Positions 5,807-62,681 of a stretch of 64,000 nucleotides of DNA are shown piece by piece (the stretch's first letter is position 1; every line of letters starts with the position of its first letter). The translations under genes and the position numbers were made by a program. The DNA comes from Elsinoe ampelina (taxonomy: Eukaryota). The notes beneath the pieces were generated by a model. It worked only from the letters and a program-made list of their open reading frames with translations, did no database searches and was not told the DNA's origin. Where the stretch lies: positions 1,195,147-1,259,146 of the forward strand of contig ML992505.1 of assembly GCA_010093995.1 (NCBI GenBank). The letters are read 5' to 3'.

Positions 5807-8800
5807 GGCAGGACGAGAGGGGAAGGGCGGGAGGTGGTGATGTTGAGGGTGGATGTGTCACGGAGTTTTGGATTAACGTGATGGATTGTATGTGATTGCT
5901 CTTCGGTTATGGCGTTCGGAGGCGGAAATCTGTTGTGGAATCATGGGTCACTGGACACGAGTTAATGCAACGCGTTACGATACGTTCCTTGAAGTGCAGA
6001 TGTATGTTTTGCTACTGACAGCGCCTGGCACGTACCATTGATCACTGCCATGATGTCTATTACACTATGCTCGCCACGCATGGATATTTGTGACACGCCT
6101 TTGACCCAACAAAACAAGCAGGAAGACCAGACCAATGTACAAATTCAATCACCTGCTAATCAAATAATAATCACCTCTGGTAGTTTGATATCCCGAAGTC
6201 CAATATCACTTGACCAGTATCATGTACGTTTTGCTTCAATCCTGCATGCTCATTCAACGGTATGCCTTCCACTATTCACTACGCCAACCCAGCAGTGGAA
6301 ATGATCCCATGCAGTACTTGGGGTTGTCCCTGTCCTGGTATCGAGGTATTCGTCCCTCAATGTCCCGAACATTTCCCAGTGTGCTACAGAATCTTACTCT
6401 CTGAGGACAATGGGCTGGATGGATCTCGGATGTCTGCTTTGTGTGGTGTTCCAATATCAGACTCTGGTTGCGTCTCGGCGGAGCAGAAGGTCGCTACTGC
6501 AGTGGGGTTCTAAAGGTCTACGTGCTCTGCTGGTTCACCATGGCGTCCTATGATGGTCTGTTCAGATATGCTGAGTTGAGTCGGGTATTCGATTGATCAG
6601 AAAGATCTGGCTCAACCATCGGTCCTTGTAGCGTTAGATAGATGATGGATCAAGTAGTTGATGGTGTTTCGTGCTGCTTGGGCACAACTGATGGCGCGAC
6701 CTGTGTCTATGTTGCTGTCAGAGCTGACGGTCGCTGCCGCGTGATTCCTGCTAAACGCTTGAGGTATGCCAACCACGTGCTCATCTAAGATTGTTGATAC
6801 CAACGCTGAGAGGCCCCCGTGCTGGTTCATGCCCGTTTACCTTGCTGCTGTAGCTCATGCCTTTTACCTATTGCTGTAACAGTCTCGTTGCCGGGGAGTC
6901 GTCAGCGCGCAGAATCCTGTCATCATCACATGATGAATGCATAGCTTGCATCTGGAAGACACTTTGTGACAGATGCAACTTCTGTGTAGCAAGTCAACAC
7001 AAACATCACAGGTGATGCTGCATGGCGTTGAGGATGGAGGGTTGCCCAGAGGTTGGAGCTTGGTCCTCGGTTCATGCAGGCTGACGGATTTGCTCCTCCC
7101 GAAATCGGGCGGAACTTCTTCACTCCATCCATCAATTCGGTGTACAACCACAACTCGTGCACCGTGATCTTCAGCGGTTATGAGCGTCAATCAGAGAGCA
7201 TTCTGATCTCACCAATACGTTGAGGATGCTATGCAAGATGTCGCTCGACCTGAGCTCACAAAGGATGGCCTCCGGTGACGCGCATCGCCTCTCCTCGACC
7301 ACATCGCAAAGCTCTACAATGACGGCCATTGCGATAGCGACACTGCCGTGCAGCTCGAGTAGAGTAGTCGAGGATGATTAAAAACTCGAAACTTGGGGAG
7401 GATGGCGAAGAACACCTCGCGGAGGGCATTGCAGCTCCGCCCGAGTGAGCGACAACAGGACAGATAGGCGTTGCGCACCCACCCAAGCGACCGCAAGATT
7501 GTGTTCAAGCACAGCTCATATACAACAGTATATCGTAGATGAGATCGGATAGTCAGAGTCCGCCCAGCTTGACCGACGACGACAACGTGTGCGACATGCA
7601 TCAGACGCCGGACCACTCGTGGCAATCCGAGGTTCTGATGACAGCGTTGAGAGCCGCCGAGGTACCGGAGAGGACAGCCTTAAGAGCCGGGAAAAGTGAC
7701 ATGAATACATCACCGGATCAGTATACCACATCAAGTCGCCATTGCCCGGGCTGTCCATGCGGGCACGACAGCCACAGCCTGCAAGCAGCAGTGTGTCCGA
7801 AGGCGTTGACGCCCACCGCAAGCATATACAATGGTTGCCTCACAGCCTGAGTATGGCAAATCGTACAATCCGCAGGAGCAACATCAACGCCTCGTTGAAG
7901 AATGTTGCTTTGTGGACATGAACTCCTGAGTCAGGCTCGCCCAGGACCTGGGCGTGGGCCTGGCTCAGGGGACTAGGAGCTGGACCTTGAGCTGGAGCTG
8001 GAGCTGGACCTGGTCTTGGACTGGATCTGGACCAGAAAAGAACTTGGAGTTCTGATGCCACGTTCCCGTATCAAGCATCGGTCCTGATTGGACCTCCTGC
8101 ACCAGTCATACCCTTGTCGGGCATTGACTTGGCTTGACTGAGCGAGCCACGCAGACTCGCATAGAGCCTTTAGACTCGGGAGTTACTCCTGCCATGTCCA
8201 CCGAGAAATCAAAGTGACAAGCGAGAAGAACAAAATGTGGATTAACGCATCACATGGAAATGAATCTTCAGAGATGTGCCAGGAAGCTTGTGGCAAATGG
8301 CCTGGGAAACAAACAGTCGACTGACTTACATCTGATCCATAATGCCACGTCAGCCAGGTTCCAGCGCTGTTGTCCGTCTTTGTCGCTGTGGACACGATCG
8401 GCCATGGTGTAACTCATCGATAAGGTCGAATCTCTCCTTTCATGCCTGCTCATCTTCCTCGGCATGAAGAGTACTGCCGATAATCTTCGGCTGTTGGACT
8501 GTGTGGTATCTCGAGTTCGCGGGACATGTTCACCAGTACTGCTCGATAGCGATGGTAGCGAGAGGGAGTCAACGATCCAGACGCGGTCTTTGACAACTTG
8601 CCCGACCACTTCTACATGGACATAAAGCCATCCAGTCTTCCGGCCCTGTCTGTATCATGCCGATGGCGCTCTAGGTTGTGGATGGAGTGGGTCGTATTTT
8701 GCTTCCCTCGAGGAACGAAATTGTCTGCCATTGAGCCTTGCCATTTGGGCTCCAACCCTGCTCTTGATAGCCGACGCATAGTCGGCCGGAGGGATACTCC

Positions 8801-10159
8801 GTACGCGGTAGACTCATTCCGTGCCGGGAACTCTGCGTGGGCTGTCGGTATCTGAAGGGGCATTGGGATACGGTGCTGTATTCAGGTCTTCCCCAGACCT
8901 TCTCCTTGGAGTGGCTGGGAGACTGTCCCATCTTCTCGGTAGTGAATGTTGCTGCATTCCCGCCCAGTCGCTCCTGTGGTTCGGCCGCACTGTGGTGCTT
9001 GATGATGGCGAACGCGGGGCCGCTGCCAGTCCGCACACTCGAAGTCATTTGGGCCGTCAAGCGATCCGATATCAATCCATTGGGCTCGAGTCGTCCCAAT
9101 ATGTTGTGAGAGCTTCTCAAAAGCAATCCAGCTTGTCGAGAGGCATGCGTGAGGGCAAGAGCTTGGGAGACGATGCCTCCCACGGTCGCGCCCATGGAGT
9201 ACCGGTATCCTTCAGTATTCCAGCCGACATGCTCTTACTGTACGCTGTTGTCGCTACTCGCGTTTTCGATCGGCTTGCTAGGCCGGCCCTCTTTTCCTGA
9301 TCAAATTGAAGCTGACCTCGTAGCGCGTTGCGCCGGAGGTGGTTGAGATGGGACGGGATGCTCGTGTTGTCGCCACGTCGGCTTTGAGACTCGGATTGAC
9401 TGTCGATGATGTCCTTGTCCGATCATGATCGTATTGCTTCTGCTGTCCCAGTCGATTGCCGATGAATGGAACGATCGCTGTCGCCGACGGTCGTGAGTCT
9501 CCGTGAGACCGCTGAAGCTGGGAGGTGGTCGGATGAAGAGACCTGCAACACTCGGCTCTTGTTAATGCATTGTGAGCCTGTACCCGCTCTCACAAAGCTT
9601 GGAGAGTCTCCTTAAGGTTCTGTATGATGATCGACGCTTTGATTGTCAATGACCGTGTGATGGTGTCGCCACTCAAAGTCTGCTGGAGCTTTGGCGCGCT
9701 CATCGGGCACAAGAATCGGAAGCGTGAAGGCGCGACGAAACACAAAGAGCTCCGGGGCTATCCGTCACTGTCAAGGGATCCTGGAATGTAGATTCGTAGT
9801 GTGCGCCGTGATGAAGCAAGGGGCGGACCAAGTGCAATCACTGAAATGTCCGCCGCGCCCGTCTGGCAGAGCAGTGTGCGACCTGCTCGCGAAAGCTCAC
9901 TATACCGACACACGAACACGACGACATGTTCACGAGGTCTATGATACTACAGTCTGCCCTTGAAACCCTACAACGGTACTCGTTCATAGCATGAGCACTA
10001 GGCCTGCAGCCATAGACCCCTTCACCTAGACAAGGCAGCGCTACACAGGGTGCACACGTTACACACTCCACGCACATTGGACATGGGCACACACACACAG
10101 GGCCGTGATGTCGTCAAGCACTCTTCTCCGAAGTCCAGCAACAGCTAGACGATCGATGA

Positions 10160-10303
10160 AAAGACCTCAAGAGGTTGGCAAAGCAAAAATTGTTGTAACC
10201 CAGCTACCAGGGCTGGTACGCCAGACGCATCCGCTGTGCAATGGATGTTCTAGCGGTTCCGAGGCATTCATGAGGCCTGGAACTACAAGTGGCGGCACAG
10301 TAT
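10160..10303 (-). ncRNA. U1 snRNA-like variant A (5' end AUACUGUGCC)
   Basis: Minus strand AUACUGUGCCGCCAC; helix H UUGUA/UACAA; SL1 GUUCCAGGC-CUCAUGAAU-GCCUCGGAAC; SL2 CAUCC-AUUGCACAGC-GGAUG (U1A-type loop); SL3 CCAGC/GCUGG; Sm site AAUUUUUG (10184-10191); 3' hairpin ACCUC-UU-GAGGU. 3' end approximate. Confidence 0.88.
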
Positions 10304-10382
10304 GAAGAAAGAAAGAGGAAGTTTGGGGGCGAAGCAGAGGTATATATACCCTCTCACACGCGGCTCTGCGGCGGCTCTGCGG
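10304..10382 (-). promoter_or_regulatory. Promoter of U1-like A: TATA box, pyrimidine initiator and GC element
   Basis: TATATATA at 10341-10348, CTTCCTCTTTCTTTCTTC abutting the start, tandem GCGGCTCTGCG(G) (+ strand) at 10360-10382. Confidence 0.7.
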
Positions 10383-10539
10383 CTCGCAGAATCCTGTTTC
10401 TCCGTTGCACGGGCGACGAGAGGGCCACACGTAGCGCCACACGTCAGCTCAAACCAGGAAATGACTCTTCTCCGAGGTCCGGCAGCAGCCAGAACAATCG
10501 ATGAAAATGTCTCCAAGGCAAGAATCATCGCAAGGATGG

Positions 10540-10699
10540 GACGCCCTGAAGAGAAGGGTAAAGCAAAAATTACGCACAACCCTGGCGTCCCTACTTACCT
10601 TACTTACCCTGGGGTGGGACGCACAGAGACACATGGGTCCGAAGATGCCATGCGGAAGCAGAGACTTCATGATCTCTCCACTCCTGTGCAAGAAAGTAT
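10540..10699 (-). ncRNA. U1 snRNA-like variant B (5' end AUACUUUCUU; tandem 5' splice sites in SL3 loop)
   Basis: Helix H GCACA/UGUGC; SL1 GGAGUGGAGA-GAUCAUGAAG-UCUCUGCUUCC (U1-70K-type loop); short SL2 with UUCG and no AUUGCAC; SL3 GCGUCCC...GGGACGC; Sm site AAUUUUUG (10564-10571) followed by CUUUACCC. 3' end approximate. Confidence 0.88.
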
Positions 10700-10763
10700 G
10701 AAGAAAGAGAGAGGAAGAGTGGTGTGTGGGAGAAATATATATCCCCTGCATGCGGCTCTGCGG
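10700..10763 (-). promoter_or_regulatory. Promoter of U1-like B
   Basis: ATATATATTT at about 10733-10742, CTTCCTCTCTCTTTCTTC initiator, GCGGCTCTGCGG (+ strand) at 10752-10763, shared with copy A. Confidence 0.68.
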
Positions 10764-11419
10764 GACCTCGGATCACGCAGCCGTTGATTCGGCGGCCAGA
10801 GTGGAAGATCATGGAATCAGAGAGCTGTTTTGGCTTTGCATTGCCAGCGCACTGTAAAGGATCAGGGCAATGTAGCCAAGGGCTGCCTTGTCTAACTCAG
10901 GCAGTAGCAAGCTCCGCGCGAGAGATGACCGCGTGCGAGGCTTCTGGCAGTGGTGGAGAGCCCTCGAGGTCACTGCCAAAGCGCTTGCCATCACTGCTGG
11001 AGGTGATTGGCGAGATCTCCTTGCTACGCAGCCGTGAAGGGCGCTCCTGTCGTCACCGTGATATTTGGATTGCCTTCTGGGATGACATTGAGAAACGCTC
11101 TGCCTTCTGGAACGAGATGCCCATGACCCCGAAAGCCACCGTGAATTTGGATTGCGTGGAAAGCCTCACATCTGCGAACCACAGTCTGCTGCTTCATGGC
11201 GAGGAAGGCCAGGCGCACAAAGCTTCATGGTGATATCCAAGGACTTGATCGCCTGACATGGACTTAATTGTGTGCAACTTCATGCAGAGTACAGGGCTCA
11301 GGTCAGAGATCATGCGAGGGCTTCAAGAATCACGTCGCACAAAGGTCAAGGTCAAGGACAGATGCGAAATCACACGAGAGCGCAAACATCATGAGTACTC
11401 CCCTCCGAGACAAGGCGAT

Positions 11420-11580
11420 GAAGCCCAGGATCGATGGGGGGTTCCAAAAATTATCCGGTGATCCTGTGCAAGCACAGTCCAAGCTTATCAGAACCAATGT
11501 GCAATGGCTCCAACTCACCTCGTACCAATGGCAGAACCATCAGCACAACCGGCGGGACCTGCTGGCTAGGCAAGTCGACT
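11420..11580 (-). ncRNA. U1 snRNA-like variant C (5' end AGUCGACUUGCCUAG)
   Basis: Helix H CCGGU/ACCGG; SL1 GUGCUGAUGG-UUCUG-CCAUUGGUAC (no 70K loop); SL2 GGAGCC-AUUGCACAUU-GGUUCU; SL3 CUGUGC-UU-GCACAG; Sm site AAUUUUUGG (about 11444-11452). TATAAAA (11619-11625) lies 45 nt upstream, as in copy A. Confidence 0.82.
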
Positions 11581-12221
11581 GAGAAAAGAAAGAGGGAAGA
11601 ACCTGGTGCGAAGAGTTCTTTTATACCTTCGTTCCCTCGGAGTTCGGTGCGTGTCGGCGCCGACATGGTTGGGAGCTTGTGAGGTCACCGCCGTGGTGAT
11701 GAGGTGGTTGGGGCAGAGACCAGCCACTTGTTCACAGCTGCCTTGGTTGGAAGCTTCCAAACAAGGCACAAATGGCGCTGGGTCAGCTCACCACCAGCGC
11801 GGAAGACCTCGTTGAAGGCCGTTGCTGTGAGGACGAGCGCCGATCAGCAAGCTACACCTTGGTTGAGACACTTCCAAACCGGTTCGCAGCGTACCAGGTG
11901 CACCGTGACCAAGCTGCGCCTCCCGTTGTCCTTGATGCCATTCCGTGCAGCTGCCGAAACATGCTCTGTGCACTTCCACCGCGTTCGAGGAAGCTCCATG
12001 ATGACGTGCCTGTATACCACCTGCGCTCGTACACGACCTGACGACCAGCGGACGTGAGGTATGGGATGGACCAACGGAGACTGTGGGCGCATGGCAGCAC
12101 GCGTGTCTTCGAGATGTTAGGCTGTGGAAGCGGATTCATCACAAGTCACAATGCTGGAGGGGAACAGGAGGCTCTTCTCCAAGGCACAGCTGTAAAGCCA
12201 TACAATGATGAAAACATCAAA

Positions 12222-12399
12222 CAGCGAGGCTGTGAAGAGGGTAAAGCAAAAATTCGGCGAGAGAACCTCGGAGAGATTCAGGCCCCGGAGTGCAATGGGA
12301 CCGGTCAAAGGGATTCATGAGCTCCAATGACCCACACCAGATGGTTTCGAAAAAGCATGTGCTGCTGCTGCTGTTGCATGGGCGGTACATACAATTTCT
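12222..12399 (-). ncRNA. U1 snRNA-like variant D (about 60-nt 5' extension with CAG repeat)
   Basis: Helix H UGGUG/CGCCG; SL1 GGUCAUUGGA-GCUCAUGAA-UCCCUUUGACC; SL2 GGUCCC-AUUGCACUCC-GGGGCC; SL3 GAAUCUC-UCC-GAGGUUC; Sm site AAUUUUUG (12247-12254) followed by CUUUACCC; TATAAAA at 12440-12446 and CTTCCTCTTTCTTTCTCC initiator. Confidence 0.85.
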
Positions 12400-14309
12400 G
12401 GAGAAAGAAAGAGGAAGAGATTGTCCAGCGAGAGACAACTTTTATAGAACTCAGCGCCAAGAAATCCCTTGGCCGCTTACGTGATCACCCGCGACGACAG
12501 CATTGGCTCGCTTGCTGGCGTTCCCGGCCGGGAGAGCGGCAGCGAGGCCTCATGCGGTATGGCGTCGCTCGCAGGCCGGCTCAGGGGCCCCTGGGAGGGC
12601 TGCCAGGAGGTGAGCCAGGGCCTGTGGGAAGGGCGGCGGGAAGCCATGATATGGCGGCGGGCTCACACCACAAGGTCGCGCAAATACTGAAGCTATCAGC
12701 GGTGATCAGAAGGATCTCACGATCATTTTGAGACTACTTAAAGCATCATACACCTTGTGGTGGTTGCGCAAGACGTGATTGTGTGTTCGATGAGCCCGAG
12801 GGAGCTGATTTCCACGCACCTTTGAGCGGCGACGACGACATGACCAACACTCGGATGAGCATCAAATTTTGGATGAGGATGATCGCGTGGATGCAGAGAA
12901 CATCATCTCGAAATCTCATGATCATAGCTTCACGTTTGAGAATCTGTCATCTGGTGGGCTCGCAGCTCATCCCATTCGACATGGTTCACCAGCTCCGCAG
13001 CGGCCCACGACGCTGAGCCAGGCAAAACCAATCGGTACGCTCAATCACCAACACCAAAAACACGCGAGATTCCTCACTGCACAGTGTTCGGGCCTTCCGA
13101 ACATGATCCAAGCTGAGGGCTATGCACGTTAAATCACAAATCAAGACGGCTACACTATGCTCATGAATGACCGGCCAAAGTTCTGGGTATCAGAGCGCAC
13201 TGGAAGACACGAGCAGTACCCTCATGTGAAGGACGTTGGGATGACAAGTATGACATTTGACGCACGCGTGTTTATATGACCACTCGACACGACTGCTCCT
13301 CAAGGTTGAAGGCCTCAGGATCAGCATTGGCGAATGCACACCATCTTGATCGAGCAGCGATAATCTTCGGAAGACAGGACCCTTTCGTGCCACTGCCGAG
13401 CCTGGTATCTACATGCCTTGACTCCTCCTTGTCCGCCATGACACGCGCGTACTTCCATCTACCCTGCTAAAGAGCCGCCATCTACAAGTCGTCGGGCGCA
13501 AATTTGGTCGAAGAGGGGATCGTAGACCCCAAGTGCTGTCAGACCAAACAGACGCATCTGCGCATGCCTGATCTCGATTGGTTGTGACGTGCGAGAATGG
13601 CCCTAGTCGCTGGAGACGATAGCGAGAAGGATAGCGCTGCTCGGTGACTTTGTGAGGACCACTCCTTCGCCTTTTTTCCTCGACCAATGCCTCCTCCCGT
13701 TGACAAGCCGTCGCGGAAGCAGAGCAGACCACATGAAGGCCGCACGACTTTTTGTCGGACCATCGCGCTCGCAATGTGAGGTTGCAGTATATGCTTCCAA
13801 GCACTTTGCGCCTCCCTGGACTCGCGATAGGTAGGCCAGACTCTTTGCTCGTCAGGGCCATTGCTCGTGTCCCCTCATGCCGTTGTCCTTGCTCTTGGCT
13901 CCCTGTGTACCTTCCCTCACTCTTGATCATCTTCGCCTCCTCTCTCCCCGAGCGTGGCAGGGTCGCGCCTCAAGAGTCGCGGTCGGAGGCTGTGGTAGTC
14001 GCAGTGCGCGTTGATGGCGGAATCCTTGACGGTGCTTATAGTTGGCTCTCATGTGTGCGCCAGTCATTCTTTGGGGGAGCTTGCGAGGTCGTGATGCTGG
14101 ACGAATGGTCGTGAATTTGAAATGGACGGCCGGGTCTGTGACTTCCTCGTGGTGGGAGCTCATTCGAACACTTCTGGATGGCCGAAATTGCGACCAGGCC
14201 CGGATCGTTATGCATGCCTCCTTGCCAACGTATACCTTTGTCATACCTGCGAACCTGTTGTAGGCCCCCTTCACCTACTGCATCATCGTGTCAAGTAAGT
14301 GCGTGGGGA

Positions 14310-26778: not shown

Positions 26779-29251
26779 TCACGCCTTCCTCCCCCTCTCC
26801 CCCTGTGCCTGCCCAGCCTCCCCCTTCACATCCGCCCTAACCACCACCCCCTCGCCCTTCTCCCTCTCCTCCTCTTCCCCCTCATGCTCCTCCCCACGAT
26901 ACGCAATCTCCTCTTCCTCCGTCACCCTAGCCCCTCTGGTCGAAATCTTGCCCCCTTCGCCTCCACTCATCTGCCACTCCATCAACTTCTTGAACGCCCC
27001 GTCCTCCTTGCCGCTCAACTCCCTGTACGTCCCCGTCTCGGCCACCCGCCCGTCCGCGCCGATGCAGATGATCATGTCGCTGCGCTTGATGGTGCTGAGG
27101 CGGTGGGCGATGGAGATGGTGGTGTTGTTCCCCGCGAGTAGCGTGCCGAGGGCTTGGTTGACGAGGGTTTCGGATTCGGCGTCGAGGGCCGAGGTGGCTT
27201 CGTCTAGGATGAGGATGTCCGGGTTTTTGAGCAGGGCGCGGGCGATGGCGATGCGTTGTTTTTGGCCGCCTGAGAGTTGGGTGCCGCGGGAGCCGACTTG
27301 GGTTTCGAGACCTTCAGGCTGGGCAAGGGGGGTTAGTGGGGGGTTAGAGGGAAGAGGGGAGGANNNNNNNNNNNNNNNNNNNNNNNNNTACGAAGTCGGA
27401 GATGAATTGGCAGTTGGCTTTGCGGGCGGCTTGTACGATTTCCGAGGTGGTGGCGTGAGGGCGGCCGTAGGCAATGTTCTCGGCGATGCTGCCGGAGAAG
27501 AGGACGGGTTCTTGTCCTACGAAACCGATCTTGCGGCGGAGTTGTTTGGCGTTGAAGGTGGAGATGTCGTTTCCATGAATCAGAATCTGGCCACTGGTTG
27601 GACTGTAGAAGCGCATGATGAGACTCGCGACAGTTGATTTGCCAGCTCCTGAAGGTGCGACAATGGCAACGTTTGAACCTTGTCTGATAGTGAAGTCCAG
27701 GTCCTTGAAGATCTCTACTGCAGGTCGAGTGGGATAGCTGAATGTTACTTTCCGAAACTCAATGTCTCCCCGGGCGCTCTTGACCATGACGCCCTTCGTT
27801 GGGCTGATCGTAGGCTCGCGGTCTTGCAACTCGAACAGCCGTGATGCGGCACCTACGCCCTTCATCAGCTCTGAGTAGAACCCAGACAGACCGAACAGCG
27901 AGCTACCAGCGTAGGCGGTGTACATCAAGAACGATGTCAGATCACCGACACTGATGGCTCCAGAATTGACCATTCCACCTCCAAACCATAACAGCGCCAG
28001 GAAAGTCATGTTGCCCATGAATCCCGATGAGCTGAAGAAGACAGCACTAATGACTGCTTCACGCTTGCCCAAGTTGAAAATCTGGCGAACTTGCTTGTTG
28101 TATCTGTTGACCTCTTGAATCTCGCCAGCAAAAGCCTGTGATGTCCTGACATTGCCCAGCCGCTCTTCCGCGATCTTGGTAAGACTTCCAAGCGCCTTCT
28201 GTATGCGACGCGAGAGCGTTCGGATTGCTCTACCATAGAAAAAAGCGCCAATAGCTACGGGCGGAAATAGTAAAGCGAGCACACCAGTGAGCTTTAGCGA
28301 AACGTATCCCATGAGAGTGAAGCCTGCTGCAGCAGAGACCAGAGACCTAAGCCCGTCTGAGACATTCTGGGTGATACTCTTGCCGACGATGATTGTGTCA
28401 GATCCCAGACGTGAGATCAAGTCACCGACACGGTTGGCATCGAAGAATTCGGCGTCTTGAACCATTGTTCTGCGAAAGAGCTGGGATCGGAGCCTCGTGA
28501 CAACACGCTCACCCACAATTCTCAAGACAATGATGCGTCCAAAGTTTGCGCATGCACCCACCGTCAGAAGACCTCCAAGTGCTAGGTAGAATGTACTGAG
28601 ATCCAGGCCGAACAAAGTTGCGGCCTCTCCGGCAGGCTTTGTAGCAATGTCCAAAATTTTGCCAATAGAGAAGGGTAATGACATGGAGATCGACGACGAT
28701 ATGAGAAGAAATGTGACTGCCAGTGCTAGTGGCTTTGCTTCAGGTCGGGCGATCTTGAGCAATCGTACAATCTCTCCCCAGCCTGCTCCTGTCTTTCCTG
28801 TCCCTGAGCCATCTTTGCTCAGCCTGGCAGAGAGATTGATTTGTGCTGCAGCAGACGCTTTCCCTGACTTCTTGAACCCTTGCGATTCATCCGTGTCGTC
28901 TTCATCCACCAAGGCGTTCTCCTTCTGCTCGTCTCGGTAGGAGCGCTCGACTCGTGCTGGCGCTTGTGCTTGTCTGTCGCTTGACTTGGAGCTGATCGAG
29001 CGGCGGCATTGCGTGGAGATGGTGGATAGAGGAGAATATTGTGTTCGGTACAGGCTATCCGGTTGTGGCAGTAATCTTAACCGTGCAGAGGCAAACGCCG
29101 ATGTGAAAGTTCTCTGGCTACGTATCGACGTATTGGACTGCTGCACTGCCGGAAGAGCTGGTAGTCGAGATATCGACGGGTATACCTGTGATTTACCTGC
29201 TACTGTAGCTCGCGAGATATTTTGGCTGAACGCCTGCGCAACATGGCGCAT
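26779..29251 (-). CDS. Mitochondrial half-size ABC transporter (Mdl1/Mdl2 type); intron partly in an N gap
   Basis: Presequence, TM domain, Walker [43 protein letters not shown]. Confidence 0.9.
27364..27388. other. Assembly gap (N run)
   Basis: 25 N inside the ABC transporter intron. Confidence 1.
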
Positions 29252-35310: not shown

Positions 35311-35320
35311 NNNNNNNNNN
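35311..35320. other. Assembly gap (N run)
   Basis: 10 N. Confidence 1.
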
Positions 35321-38800: not shown

Positions 38801-40773
38801 ATTGGACGATCCTATCACAGCTTCAGACGCAGCATCAACAGCAGCTGATGCCTTTGATGCTGCAGCTGAAGTCACAGACTCGATGGTGCCTTGTGAGGTG
38901 CCCAGTACAGCTTCGCTAGCAGCACTTGCAGCATCCACAACCTGATCCTTGACCTTGGCTACGATGGGAGGGACGACCTTGGATGTGAAGTCATCAGATT
39001 CGTCCTTTGCGCGTAGCTTCCATAATGCGACGCTCTTCAGACGACCGAGCTCTTTGGCAGCGTCTTCGGCGACGGCCATGGCACGTTCTTCAATGTCTGC
39101 AGCGGCAGCTCTGGTGGTTGAAAGACCATCGTGCTTGGTGACGATTTCGGCGATAGAACCGCGCCATTTCCCGGAGGTTCTTTTGAGCTGATTGTATCGT
39201 GCCCAATCACGGTGGGTGATGGCACTGTGGGAAGCCCAGCGTCGACCAATCTCTTGCAGGCGCAGTTCTCTGATGTTGTCGATCGTTTCCAGGGTAGAGT
39301 TGGCGGCAGCTTCGATCAGATTGGTCGTTTCGGTGTCGAACTTCTTCCTCCATTCTCTAATCTGCTGCGCCTTTTCACGGACCTGCTTGCCAGAAGAACG
39401 AATTTGTGACTCAATATCCTTTGAAGCAAGCTGCACATCCTCCTCGGAGTAATCTTCGGGTAGTCCTGCTGCCGCAGACTTGATCGCCTTCTGGATAGAC
39501 TTGGCTCCACTTGCCTGAACCTCTTCGAGCTGTATGACCAATGATTCGCCGACGTTTTTGACCTGGGCGTTATTCCGCTCCTTAGTGATCTCCGCTACAC
39601 GATCTTTGAGATGCTCTGCGCCCTCGGAAACAGCTCGAGAAACCTGTTCCTCCCATAGGTCAAGATCAGCAGCGAATTGCTCGCCGGCATTCTTCTCTGG
39701 TTCAGGAGAAGCAGACGGTGTCGATGATGGTGCTACGACTGATGATGAAACTGGTGTAGTTGATGCGACCGAACTGGAGGTCTTGATCGACTTGGACGAG
39801 GATGAGCTGCTCTCGGAAGCGGAGCTGGCGGCTGAACTGATGACTGCTTCAACCTTCTTCTCGTCGCGATATCGCCCCAGTCTCTGCTTGATACGCATGA
39901 TCTGCGGCTCAACATTTTCGCCATAGAGTACTTTGAAAGTTGGCAAGACGTGTCGATTCAGTGCTGTCCATACCACGCCATTTGCCCACTGAGTATACGG
40001 GAGGGCGACATTGAGGAAGAACTTCTCCCCTTTCCGATAACCGCTTTGCACGTATGGTGAAGCGAACTTGTAAGCTGGTTGGATCTCCCATTCCCACAAG
40101 TCGCTGGCAGATGTTGTCACGCTTGTATAGTAGGGGCGAACAGCCTTCTCGGCTTTCTTAACGTAAGGACCTAGGGTCGCATCATACTGCTTGAGAGCTT
40201 GCTGTTGGGCATTTGATAGTTGGGGAAGCACGTTATTGTCCCACTGTTTCTGGCCAAACTTTTGAGCTGACTCCACGCGGGGTGCTCCATACTTGACGTA
40301 GTTGGCTTGGGCGAAGGTGGACGCTGGCTGGATGAACTTTGATTGTGCTTGGTCGATATACGGTTGCACTTTCTGGAGATGGGGCTCAACATGGGTTTGG
40401 TAGTATGGTTGTACGTATGGTGTCGCAAAGTCGTGGACCTGGAGGTAGGGTTTGCAGAGCTTGGGCGACTTGTCCGTAAGCTGTGAAGACTCTTTGGGAC
40501 ATCGAAGGATGATCGTGGCTATCGTGTACCATACAGATATCCTGGGTAGTGTCAGCGTTCCCGACTTCTCAAAGACCATGGTGTAATATACCTCAATACT
40601 TGTGAGAGGACCCAACCAAAGAATCCTTGTCTCTTTGCAGCAGGTGAAGGCCTGTAAACCTGTGTACCAGGCTCAGTCTTGATGTGGCCATTGGTCCTGC
40701 CAGGACTCTTGATCTGGCCATTTGTCTGGCCAGGAGACCGCCTCAAAGCATAATCATTCATGCCGGCTGCCAT
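35872..40773 (-). CDS. Large Ser/Ala-rich membrane-anchored protein (She10-like fungal family), 3 exons
   Basis: ORFs of 917 and 644 aa joined by an intron near 37861-37910; first exon MAAGMND...FFGWVLSQVLR; motifs WYTIATIILRCP...CKPYL and YGENVEPQIMRIKQRLGRYR; repeated ASEAIYG/YGT units. Confidence 0.75.
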
Positions 40774-60892: not shown

Positions 60893-61320
60893 TCACACCT
60901 CTTTATTGTTGAACGCCAATCCAAACCTGACCAATCCTATCGTCGCCAACACGCTCAGTCCGATTGGCAATGGCTTTCCAGACCGAATTGCTCGAGGAAT
61001 GCTGGAGCCAGCGAGGACGAAGCTCGCTAGAAGAGCAAGCTCGACTCCGTATGGTTGTCTGTTCTGGATGCGGTATCCGCCGAGGGCGTAGAGGGCGCCG
61101 ACTGTGCAGCCGGCGGCGACGGAGGGGATGGAGCCGGTTCGGACGTAGCCCATTGTGCCGCCACCGGCGGTCAGACCGGCGAAGACATAGGCGATTGTTC
61201 TGCTTTCGTCAGTGTTTCTATCCAGAGGTGATGCTGCGTCGGCAGTGGTGCGGGGAGGTGTACTCGAGAGACTGCTTAGGTTAGCTACAAGGACGTGATG
61301 TGAGGCACTGCACTCACCAT
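60893..61320 (-). CDS. TMEM14-family small membrane protein, 3 coding exons including an 8-nt microexon
   Basis: ATG|TCTCTCGA|AACAATCGCC gives MSLETIAYVFAGLTAGGGTMGYVRTGSIPS...GSSIPRAIRSGKPLP. Confidence 0.85.
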
Positions 61321-61689: not shown

Positions 61690-62681
61690 ATGCCACCCAA
61701 AAAATCCCCCCCACCCTCCTCCATCCCCCCATCAACAGCAACACCCTCCCAACCCTCCGCCTCCCAAACCCCGCAAAAGAACCCCACGACCGCCATCCCC
61801 GCGACCTCGAAATCCAGCTCCAGCTCCTCCTCTTCCTCGTCAGCAGCGATCCGCAACCCGCAGTCGGCGCAGGACATCGCCCTGTCCATCTACAGGAAAT
61901 ACGTGGACCAGACACCGCAGAGGGTCAAATTGGTGGATGTCTTCATGGGTTTCCTGGTGGTGGTCGGGGTGATTCAGTTTGTTTATTGTGTGCTGTTTGG
62001 GAATTTTGTGAGTGGACTTTTTCTCTGTTTTTTCTTTCATGTGTGGTTTCTTATGAGGGAAGATTTTTGGTGGGGTGAGGTGGGGGCCTGGGGAAGAGGG
62101 GTGGGAAAGGAGGGAGGGAGGGATGAATCGGGAGGAGAGGAGGGTGGTGGCGGCTGCGTTGGAGCAGGTGGTTTGGGATATGGAGTTGGGGTGGTGATGG
62201 GAGGGGCAAGAGATGGAAATTGGGTCATGAAGAGGTGGTGCTATGCGTGTCAGAAGAGCTGGAAGGTATACGGGGATCATGATGGATGAGTTATGGTGTA
62301 TGAGATACGATTGGATATGGGCTGGCCCCTGGGATGAAAATGCTAATGATGAACGCTTTCTTTTGTCTTTCATTATTGGGTTTCTCTTCTTGATACTGTC
62401 TCACTTATGCAGGGGGACCAATTTCTAACATACATGCCTCATAGCCATTCAACGCCTTCCTCTCCGGCTTCTCAGCAACAGTAGGCCAATTCGTACTCAC
62501 AGCCAGCTTGCGCATCCAGACGAATCCAGACAACAAAGGCGAGTTCAAGAGCATCAGTCCAGAGAGGTACATACAACTTTCTCGCTTGAGTATCGTCACT
62601 GACAGACTATCCAGAGCATTCGCGGACTACATCCTCGGCAGCGTAATCCTCCATTTCTTCTGCATCAACTTCATCAACTGA
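61690..62681 (+). CDS. OST2: Oligosaccharyltransferase subunit Ost2/DAD1, 3 exons
   Basis: [11 protein letters not shown]...[36 protein letters not shown]...SPER|AFADY...HFFCINFIN*; 437-nt first intron. Confidence 0.93.

Follow-up and report, generated by a model that had tools for sequence, protein, structure and literature searches.

Four linked U1-like genes with altered 5' arms in Elsinoe ampelina: probable maintained small nuclear RNA genes and a candidate target intron

We analyzed a 64,000-nucleotide (nt) stretch of the Elsinoe ampelina genome (contig ML992505.1 of GenBank assembly GCA_010093995.1, positions 1,195,147 to 1,259,146 of the forward strand; hereafter, the window), in which an earlier note had described a tandem array of four divergent U1 small nuclear RNA (snRNA)-like genes on the minus strand. 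The observation was confirmed, and its interpretation was partly supported. The four units, here named A to D, are homologous to U1, and the sequence comparisons supported the view that they are U1-derived genes rather than chance look-alikes. We consider it probable, with a likelihood of roughly 0.6, that they are maintained Sm-class snRNA genes whose 5' arms have been replaced. The 5' arm of unit A is complementary to a non-consensus 5' splice site in a DAD1/OST2-family gene of the same window, and unit A is thus a candidate dedicated reader or repressor of that weak site.

All the elements that had been claimed for the four minus-strand units, namely a TATA box, a CT-rich tract, an Sm site, and specific loops, were present where they had been described. 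The units share a common layout. TATA lies 42–47 nt ahead of the predicted first base in all four and is followed by the CT-rich tract and a body of approximately 140–185 nt, which ends in the Sm site AATTTTTG and a short hairpin. Downstream of the body is a TTTCATC...GGAGAAGAG element (the 3' box), of which unit B carries a degenerate version. The elements, with stem-loops abbreviated as SL, are as follows.

12172-12446, minus strand: unit A (TATA at 12441-12446; CT-rich tract to 12400; predicted RNA approximately 12399-12215)
12384-12399, minus strand: unit A 5' arm, the first 16 nt of the predicted RNA
12314-12320 and 12290-12297, minus strand: unit A SL1 loop (TCATGAA) and SL2 loop (CATTGCAC)
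12247-12254 and 12172-12213, minus strand: unit A Sm site and 3' box
11397-11625, minus strand: unit B (TATA at 11620-11625; predicted RNA approximately 11580-11425)
11499-11506 and 11445-11452, minus strand: unit B SL2 loop (CATTGCAC) and Sm site, with a degenerate 3' box
10465-10741, minus strand: unit C (TATA at 10736-10741; predicted RNA approximately 10699-10540, first bases ATACTTTCTTGC)
10666-10672, 10564-10571, and 10465-10506, minus strand: unit C SL1 loop, Sm site, and 3' box
10593-10609, minus strand: unit C SL3 loop, with GGTAAGT twice in tandem, matching consensus 5' splice-site sequences
10120-10348, minus strand: unit D (TATA at 10343-10348; predicted RNA approximately 10303-10160, first bases ATACTGTGCCGCC)
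10267-10273, 10236-10243, 10184-10191, and 10121-10161, minus strand: unit D SL1 loop, SL2 loop, Sm site, and 3' box

Judging from their motifs, the units carry different sets of putative protein-binding loops. Units A and D have both the U1-70K-type motif in SL1 and the AUUGCAC motif in SL2, unit C has the SL1 motif only, and unit B has the SL2 motif only; the TCATGAA motif is accordingly found in A, C, and D. The SL2 loop of unit A reads ATTGCACTCC. In unit B, SL1 consists of a 10-bp stem and a 5-nt loop without the U1-70K motif, and the AUUGCAC loop is kept. The SL1 loop of unit C is GATCATGAAG, which is of the U1-70K type; this unit has no U1A loop, and a short hairpin with a TTCG loop stands in place of SL2, followed by a long SL3.

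As the earlier note had stated, the canonical 5' end ACUUACCU was found in none of the four units. Unit A retains only TACC. The arm of unit B contains an internal ACTTGCCT, which is the canonical motif with an A-to-G change at the base facing intron position +2. Unit C starts with ATACTTTCTT, in which ATACTT is as in U1 and the bases after it are divergent, and unit D begins with ATACTGTGCC, in which ATACT is followed by nine bases where the canonical sequence has three. The 5' region of unit A is long (approximately 60 nt) and includes a spacer of approximately 44 nt, with four CAG repeats, between the arm and helix H. These repeats have CATGC on either side (12352-12375, minus strand).

The short motifs were also counted across the window, which has a G+C content of 0.54. 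The Sm motif AATTTTTG occurs five times on the minus strand and once on the plus strand, and four of the minus-strand copies are those of the array, at 10184, 10564, 11445, and 12247. Three of the four minus-strand copies of CATTGCAC lie within the array (units A, B, and D), as do three of the four copies of GGAGAAGAG in the window (units A, C, and D).

We examined the relation of the units to U1 using covariance models. At the Rfam gathering score (69.5 bits for the U1 family, RF00003), no match was obtained in the window. At the E-value threshold, the RF00003 search proposed in the earlier note matched all four units on the minus strand, at 22.6 bits for C, 16.6 for B, 16.1 for A, and 15.0 for D, all below the gathering score. 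The sole other match in 9800-12800 had an E-value of 5 and is attributable to chance, and at the same threshold no further U1-like locus was found in the whole window. Because RF00003 consists mostly of non-fungal sequences, we sought fungal U1 genes for a model of our own. Metagenome contigs were scanned for spaced combinations of the three motifs (loops and Sm site), which yielded 91 loci; in 67 of these, ACTTACCT was present just upstream. The 14 loci of a fungal-type group, several of which are one contig counted twice, have in common TATA, a CT-rich tract with ...cttcATACTTACCTTG at its end, TCATGAA in the SL1 loop (mostly as GCTCATGAAT), the SL2 loop CCATTGCAC, and the Sm site GGAATTTTTG. 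Their 3' flank contains TTTTCATTG, a small hairpin, and then GAAGAAGAG.

Eight canonical fungal U1 genes (L031, L045, L055, L073, L076, L078, L083, and L088) were used to build the model, R1, and their alignment showed compensatory change in 26 of the 37 predicted pairs. Across the 64 kb, R1 detected exactly the four units, with scores of 36.4 bits for A (E = 3e-7), 29.1 for D, 18.9 for C, and 14.9 for B; with filters off, no additional unit appeared in 8500-14000. True fungal U1 genes scored 140–178 bits with this model, and the U1s of other eukaryotes mostly 27–45 bits, with a few as low as 19. In distance from fungal U1, the units are therefore comparable to U1s of other kingdoms, and A and D fall in the range of the U1s of distant eukaryotes. 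Neither Rfam nor R1 detected a canonical U1 gene within the window.

The expression signals of fungal U1 genes are also kept. In the eleven fungal-type loci with an uninterrupted 5' end, TATA is followed by a CT-rich tract and then ATAC at comparable spacing, and this spacing of TATA, tract, and start is found in the array. The Sm site followed by TTTCATY-N15-45-GRAGAAGA was present in 13 of the 14 fungal-type loci (the 14th is cut by a contig end) and in none of the 77 other loci. In the window, this pattern was found in units A, C, and D only and was degenerate in B; the Sm site itself is present in all four. Further likenesses to the fungal genes are helix H with three stem-loops, TCATGAA in SL1, CATTGCAC in SL2, AATTTTTG as the Sm site, and a 3' box of the same kind with a small hairpin. 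Unlike those genes, the units lack the arm ACTTACCT, and their stems are almost wholly resubstituted. No second U1-like copy was found within 1.5 kb of the fungal U1 loci from the metagenomes, whereas four linked copies are present here.

The fold is maintained despite this divergence. In the four-unit alignment, which was fitted to the model and is thus biased toward pairing (a point to be set against our interpretation), 87.4% of the paired cells were occupied by pairing bases, compared with 58.9 ± 4.1% after shuffling, and none of 500 shuffles reached the observed value. When partners were slid against each other, 33–47% were paired. Both sides had changed in 24 of the 37 pairs across the units. 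Paired columns had a pairwise identity of 30% between units, as against 59% for unpaired columns, which is the reverse of what decay is expected to produce and points to maintenance. The earlier statement that stems differ and pairing is kept was thus upheld. A four-way junction, in which helix H closes SL1 to SL3 and the Sm site follows directly, was likewise found. Unconstrained minimum free energy folds of A, C, and D gave helix H, three hairpins, and a free Sm site, and in these three units the proposed junction was recovered unaided; it was not recovered in B. SL2 and SL3 of unit C could not be aligned to the model and fold as two hairpins. Indices of repeat-induced point mutation (RIP) were normal (TpA/ApT, 0.45; (CpA+TpG)/(ApC+GpT), 1.51), which rules out RIP as the source of the divergence.

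We then searched the window for complements of every arm. The arm of unit A matched the following site.

62566-62582, plus strand: candidate unit A target, comprising the last exon base and the first 16 bases of intron 2 of a DAD1/OST2-family gene, with the 5' splice site GTACAT

Intron 2 spans 62567-62614 (plus strand) and is 48 nt long, in frame, and stop-free, with a branch-like CACTGAC and the end ...TCCAG. Both flanking exons match the Pfam family DAD (PF02109), and the profile runs on across the gap. The DAD family protein of Elsinoe ampelina at NCBI is identical to the window exons and lacks the 16 intron codons. The continuity of the profile and the absence of these codons from the Elsinoe annotations indicate a real intron boundary. 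Predicted proteins of several other fungi read through the intron at the same position of DAD, which suggests that it is often missed by gene callers, and retention of this intron could be a regulated event.

The site reads AG|GTACATACAACTTTCT. Apart from one bulged C, the 16 nt at the start of the unit A RNA are complementary to it from exon position −1 through intron position +16. ACC of the arm lies opposite G|GT, as in the usual register of U1, and the duplex extends no further than the predicted 5'-terminal base. The duplex energy at this site was −19.2 kcal/mol for the unit A arm, compared with −6.3 for the canonical fungal arm, which by our reading is mismatched at +4 and +5, and −6.1 to −8.7 for the other arms. 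Of 30,000 freely shuffled arms, 30 reached at least 16 pairs with at most one bulge anywhere in the window, and with the TACC core kept, 33 of 30,000 did so; none of 1000 had done so in an earlier, smaller run. That the match falls on a true splice site is an added coincidence, for which we estimate, rather than compute, a chance of no more than 1 in 20.

Several points weigh against a guide role for the arms. The target test was post hoc, being carried out after the hit had been seen, and it was one of four, one for each arm. When matches are ranked solely by duplex energy, the DAD site is only the second-best non-self match for the A arm (−19.5, compared with −19.7 at 27416), and further sites reached about −18 (−18.4). 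The A arm is predicted to be largely self-paired in its own RNA, with a mean probability of being unpaired of 0.33. Its distance from helix H exceeds that in U1 by approximately 44 nt, and the geometry of U1C and U1-70K may therefore not hold. The arms of B, C, and D had no match above chance in the window, since 109, 498, and 706 of 1000 shuffles, respectively, did equally well. The description of the array as "guide-diversified" in the earlier note has one concrete candidate in its favor, the A arm and the non-consensus DAD splice site.

Just behind the CAG repeats of unit A is a segment similar to the splice-site sequence of the DAD gene; this segment, for which pairing with the A arm is predicted, may act as a built-in mask of the arm. 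Additional pairing of the unit A spacer with the DAD gene was also sought, and only low-complexity CAG/GC matches were obtained. Two other candidate targets were rejected. An 11-mer match of the unit D arm at 61154 lies in Gly-rich coding sequence, and by our estimate approximately 1.3 such matches are expected by chance over all arms. A GC-type candidate for unit B at 39506 is inside coding sequence.

We propose that the array arose as four old duplicates of a fungal U1 snRNA gene, which would have been kept as working RNA polymerase II snRNA genes. The RNA bodies would have drifted under selection for the U1 fold, and the single-stranded 5' arms would have been replaced. Transcription of each unit would begin from the TATA/CT-rich promoter and end at the U1-type 3' box, and the RNA would receive an Sm ring at AAUUUUUG. 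U1-70K and U1A would be bound by A and D, U1-70K only by C, and U1A only by B, and the new arm would direct the particle to sequences poorly read by canonical U1. Unit A might either define the weak GUACAU site of DAD1/OST2 intron 2 for splicing or hold the site, thereby controlling the gene. We infer transcription, assembly into small nuclear ribonucleoproteins (snRNPs), and action on the intron.

A more specific form of this proposal is that the units are "private" U1 snRNAs, each co-evolving with one or a few poorly read sites. Unit A would serve or check intron 2 of the essential DAD1/OST2 gene, unit B, with the arm ACUUGCCU, would suit GC-AG sites, and unit C would bind the main U1 snRNP through its two tandem consensus 5' splice-site sequences. 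We regard this version as tentative and more doubtful than the general reading. If it is true, the units would be a natural counterpart of engineered U1s, and a second spliceosome would not be needed for splice-site recognition to diversify.

A serious rival, or complement, to maintained genes with retargeted arms is that the units, especially C, are functional RNAs that do not act as guides but regulate the U1 system or serve as decoys for it. U1-70K, U1A, or Sm proteins would be sequestered by them, and unit C would bind the canonical U1 5' end through its tandem splice-site mimic. Among the 25,552 positions tested across the window for pairing with the canonical fungal U1 arm, the SL3 loop of unit C ranked first (−14.6 kcal/mol). 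It holds two of the nine GTAAGT hexamers found on both strands of the window, and R1 detects this loop as the reverse complement of the U1 5' end. These results suggest that the unit C RNA may pair either with the main U1 snRNA or with the near-canonical arm that it carries itself. The retention of different loop subsets by the units, and the lack of a target for the B, C, and D arms in the window, are also consistent with a decoy role. However, this explanation leaves the 16-nt fit of unit A to a real splice site unaccounted for, and the unit C body that holds the mimic could not be aligned in a relative (see below). As an alternative to the preferred reading, we consider it unlikely.

An intron can be drawn on paper in the same part of unit C (10540-10610, minus strand). 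From the 5' splice site in the SL3 loop, a pyrimidine tract and a CAG follow approximately 50–60 nt on, just past the Sm site, so that the candidate intron would run across the Sm site. The 5' strand of SL3 is repeated right after this CAG.

Sequence from a related organism bears on whether the units are kept or decaying. A DNA sequencing run of this different organism spans the whole array, and the individual differences described here come from a list of the first 40 of 181. Over 10691-12500, there were 163 substitutions and 23 gap letters in 1810 nt, corresponding to approximately 90% identity. Among the differences listed, the unit C promoter (10691-10788) had one, compared with 18 in the next 140 nt upstream, and the part of unit D that includes the SL2 loop, SL3, helix H, and the Sm site (10180-10250) had none. 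SL1 and the 5' arm of unit D together had 7 substitutions and 24 inserted letters among those listed. When SL1 of the relative's unit D was rebuilt from these differences, nine pairs were kept, one U-A pair had become C-G by a double change, one C-G pair had become U·G, and a former bulge was now paired; the loop motif was kept. In SL2, one A-U pair had changed to G·U. The orthologous changes in this one unit, as reconstructed, preserve the stems while the arm is rebuilt.

These results can be weighed against the possibility that the units are dead or dying tandem U1 duplicates, in which the likeness to U1 would be residual and the match of the A arm to the DAD intron would be due to chance. 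Some observations favor decay and so count against maintenance. The RF00003 scores are far under the gathering score, and no unit has the canonical 5' end. One protein-binding loop has been lost in B (U1-70K) and one in C (U1A); these losses weaken the picture of a uniform "U1-like snRNP family", to use the term of the earlier note, as do the changes in units C and D of the relative given below. Folding energies were unexceptional, with z-scores from −0.02 to −1.8. In the relative, the arm of unit D (10274-10301) has been rebuilt; it contains most of the 24 insertions and is approximately 24 nt longer, a difference that may partly reflect alignment ambiguity. The body of unit C (10571-10691) corresponds to 139 letters that could not be aligned at 80% identity. 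The rebuilt D arm and the replaced C body imply that arms and some bodies turn over fast, which would also fit weak constraint.

On the other hand, at a stem identity of 30%, neutral drift would be expected to have removed the Sm site (perfect in all four), the TATA/CT promoter (all four), the 3' box (three of four), and the pairing (87%). The orthologous changes in unit D keep its pairing, there is no sign of RIP, and the unit C promoter and the unit D body are conserved above the spacers among the differences listed. Moreover, the match of the A arm has a p-value of about 0.001 with its location on a splice site left out of account. The earlier contention that the units are maintained rather than decaying was thus supported by promoter layout, 3' box, pairing, normal RIP indices, and the pairing-preserving changes in unit D, and we judge decay to be less likely even than a decoy role.

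In the relative, a 60-nt contig over the Sm site and the following segment was present at double depth (10514-10571 and 10166-10180), and contigs broke at the unit ends. The double depth implies that the 3' part is the same in two units of the relative, a possible sign of gene conversion between units.

It is very improbable that the units are ordinary U1 genes, with a 5' end restored by intron removal or a changed splice-site code. Three metagenomic fungal U1 genes (L044, L053, and L060) do have a 5' arm interrupted by an intron. Upstream of the units, however, there is no first exon of the ATACTTA type, which rules out an intron restoring ACTTACCT, and the array has no ACTTACC on its minus strand. 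The introns of the window have ordinary sites, GTGAGT for example, and the R1 scores of 15–36 bits compare with 140–178 for true fungal U1. A spliced-leader RNA, in which a short leader exon and a 5' splice site would recur at one position in all copies, was also considered and rejected, as the splice-site-like sequences lie at differing positions (in the arm of A, SL2 of B, and the SL3 loop of C, with none in D) and U1 loops are present.

The three intron-containing genes (L044:131-400, L053:1390-1630, and L060:1390-1627) are fungal U1 genes of one metagenome in which a spliceosomal intron lies inside the arm that reads splice sites. L044 and L053 have the structure ATACTTA|GTACGT...CTAAC...CAG|CCTTGTTGA, and the intron of L060 is of the GC-AG type; removal restores the canonical arm. 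We found no paper on introns inside the fungal U1 arm in the literature searched.

Among the readers of splice sites, U1 is normally the most uniform, and variant U1s are a matter of debate in animals. Human variant U1 (vU1) snRNAs differ from U1 by a few to some tens of bases. The array is unlike them in that its stems are near saturation, its host is a fungus, and one candidate target intron can be named. According to two papers (PMC10870369 and PMC5159530), human vU1 paralogues, whose base changes extend to the 5' end, are transcribed, capped, incorporated into snRNPs, and active in pre-mRNA processing. The variant U1 snRNAs of animals, also the subject of a third paper (PMC13172311), are the nearest known kind. 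In a small, haploid, and tractable fungus, four compact genes and one candidate intron offer a setting that is harder to obtain with human variant U1s. In a literature search with most subscription journals outside its scope, we found no report of a U1-like gene cluster or of variant U1s in fungi.

In classic suppressor experiments, the arm of U1 was rewritten to fit one defective 5' splice site. In engineered or exon-specific U1s, the arm is likewise made to match a weak 5' splice site or the adjoining intron sequence. These RNAs are the nearest functional parallel to unit A, which looks like a natural version of them. Those RNAs are man-made, however, and the unit A arm is 7 nt longer at its 5' end and lies approximately 44 nt from helix H. 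If the link to the DAD1/OST2 intron holds, it would illustrate co-evolution of a weak splice site with an snRNA dedicated to it, and the pair would be a natural model for the retargeted U1s of therapy research. Engineered U1s are the subject of a review (PMC10572768).

A further comparison is with other snRNAs and lineages. U11, of the minor spliceosome, is a second Sm-class snRNA and reads a minority class of 5' splice sites by base pairing. Unlike U11, the units carry U1-70K and U1A loop motifs, and the intron proposed as a target is of the GT-AG type. The Rfam search reported no match to U11, but it gives the best family of each clan only, which was U1. A joint change of U1 and 5' splice sites is the theme of a 2026 paper on tunicates (PMC13326754) and of a preprint on Entamoeba (10.1101/2022.06.08.495308); the tunicate paper presents divergent U1 copies as a likely substrate for dedicated non-canonical splicing, unused in that lineage. 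Both cases are unlike the array, as they concern the main U1 and genome-wide signals rather than extra copies aimed at single sites.

Regarding the surroundings of the array, the flanking PROPPIN (HSV2-like) gene named in the earlier note was verified, and the label "BTB" for the other flanking gene had no Pfam support. Short contigs from two presumed RNA runs covered 10415-10662 and 11656-11820 at low depth and matched no unit boundaries, and two contigs from a run of unknown kind (11228-11748) likewise did not follow them; we conclude nothing from either. Runs of N at 27364-27388 (25 bases) and 35311-35320 (10 bases), far from the array, are presumably assembly gaps. Finally, a CGCAGAGCCGC motif is common to units C and D (twice in D), approximately 10–40 nt upstream of TATA (10370-10400 and 10745-10765, minus strand). 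At this place, a TTAGC-like element is present instead in the fungal U1 genes from metagenomes, and CGCAGAGCCGC may be a lineage-specific upstream promoter element.

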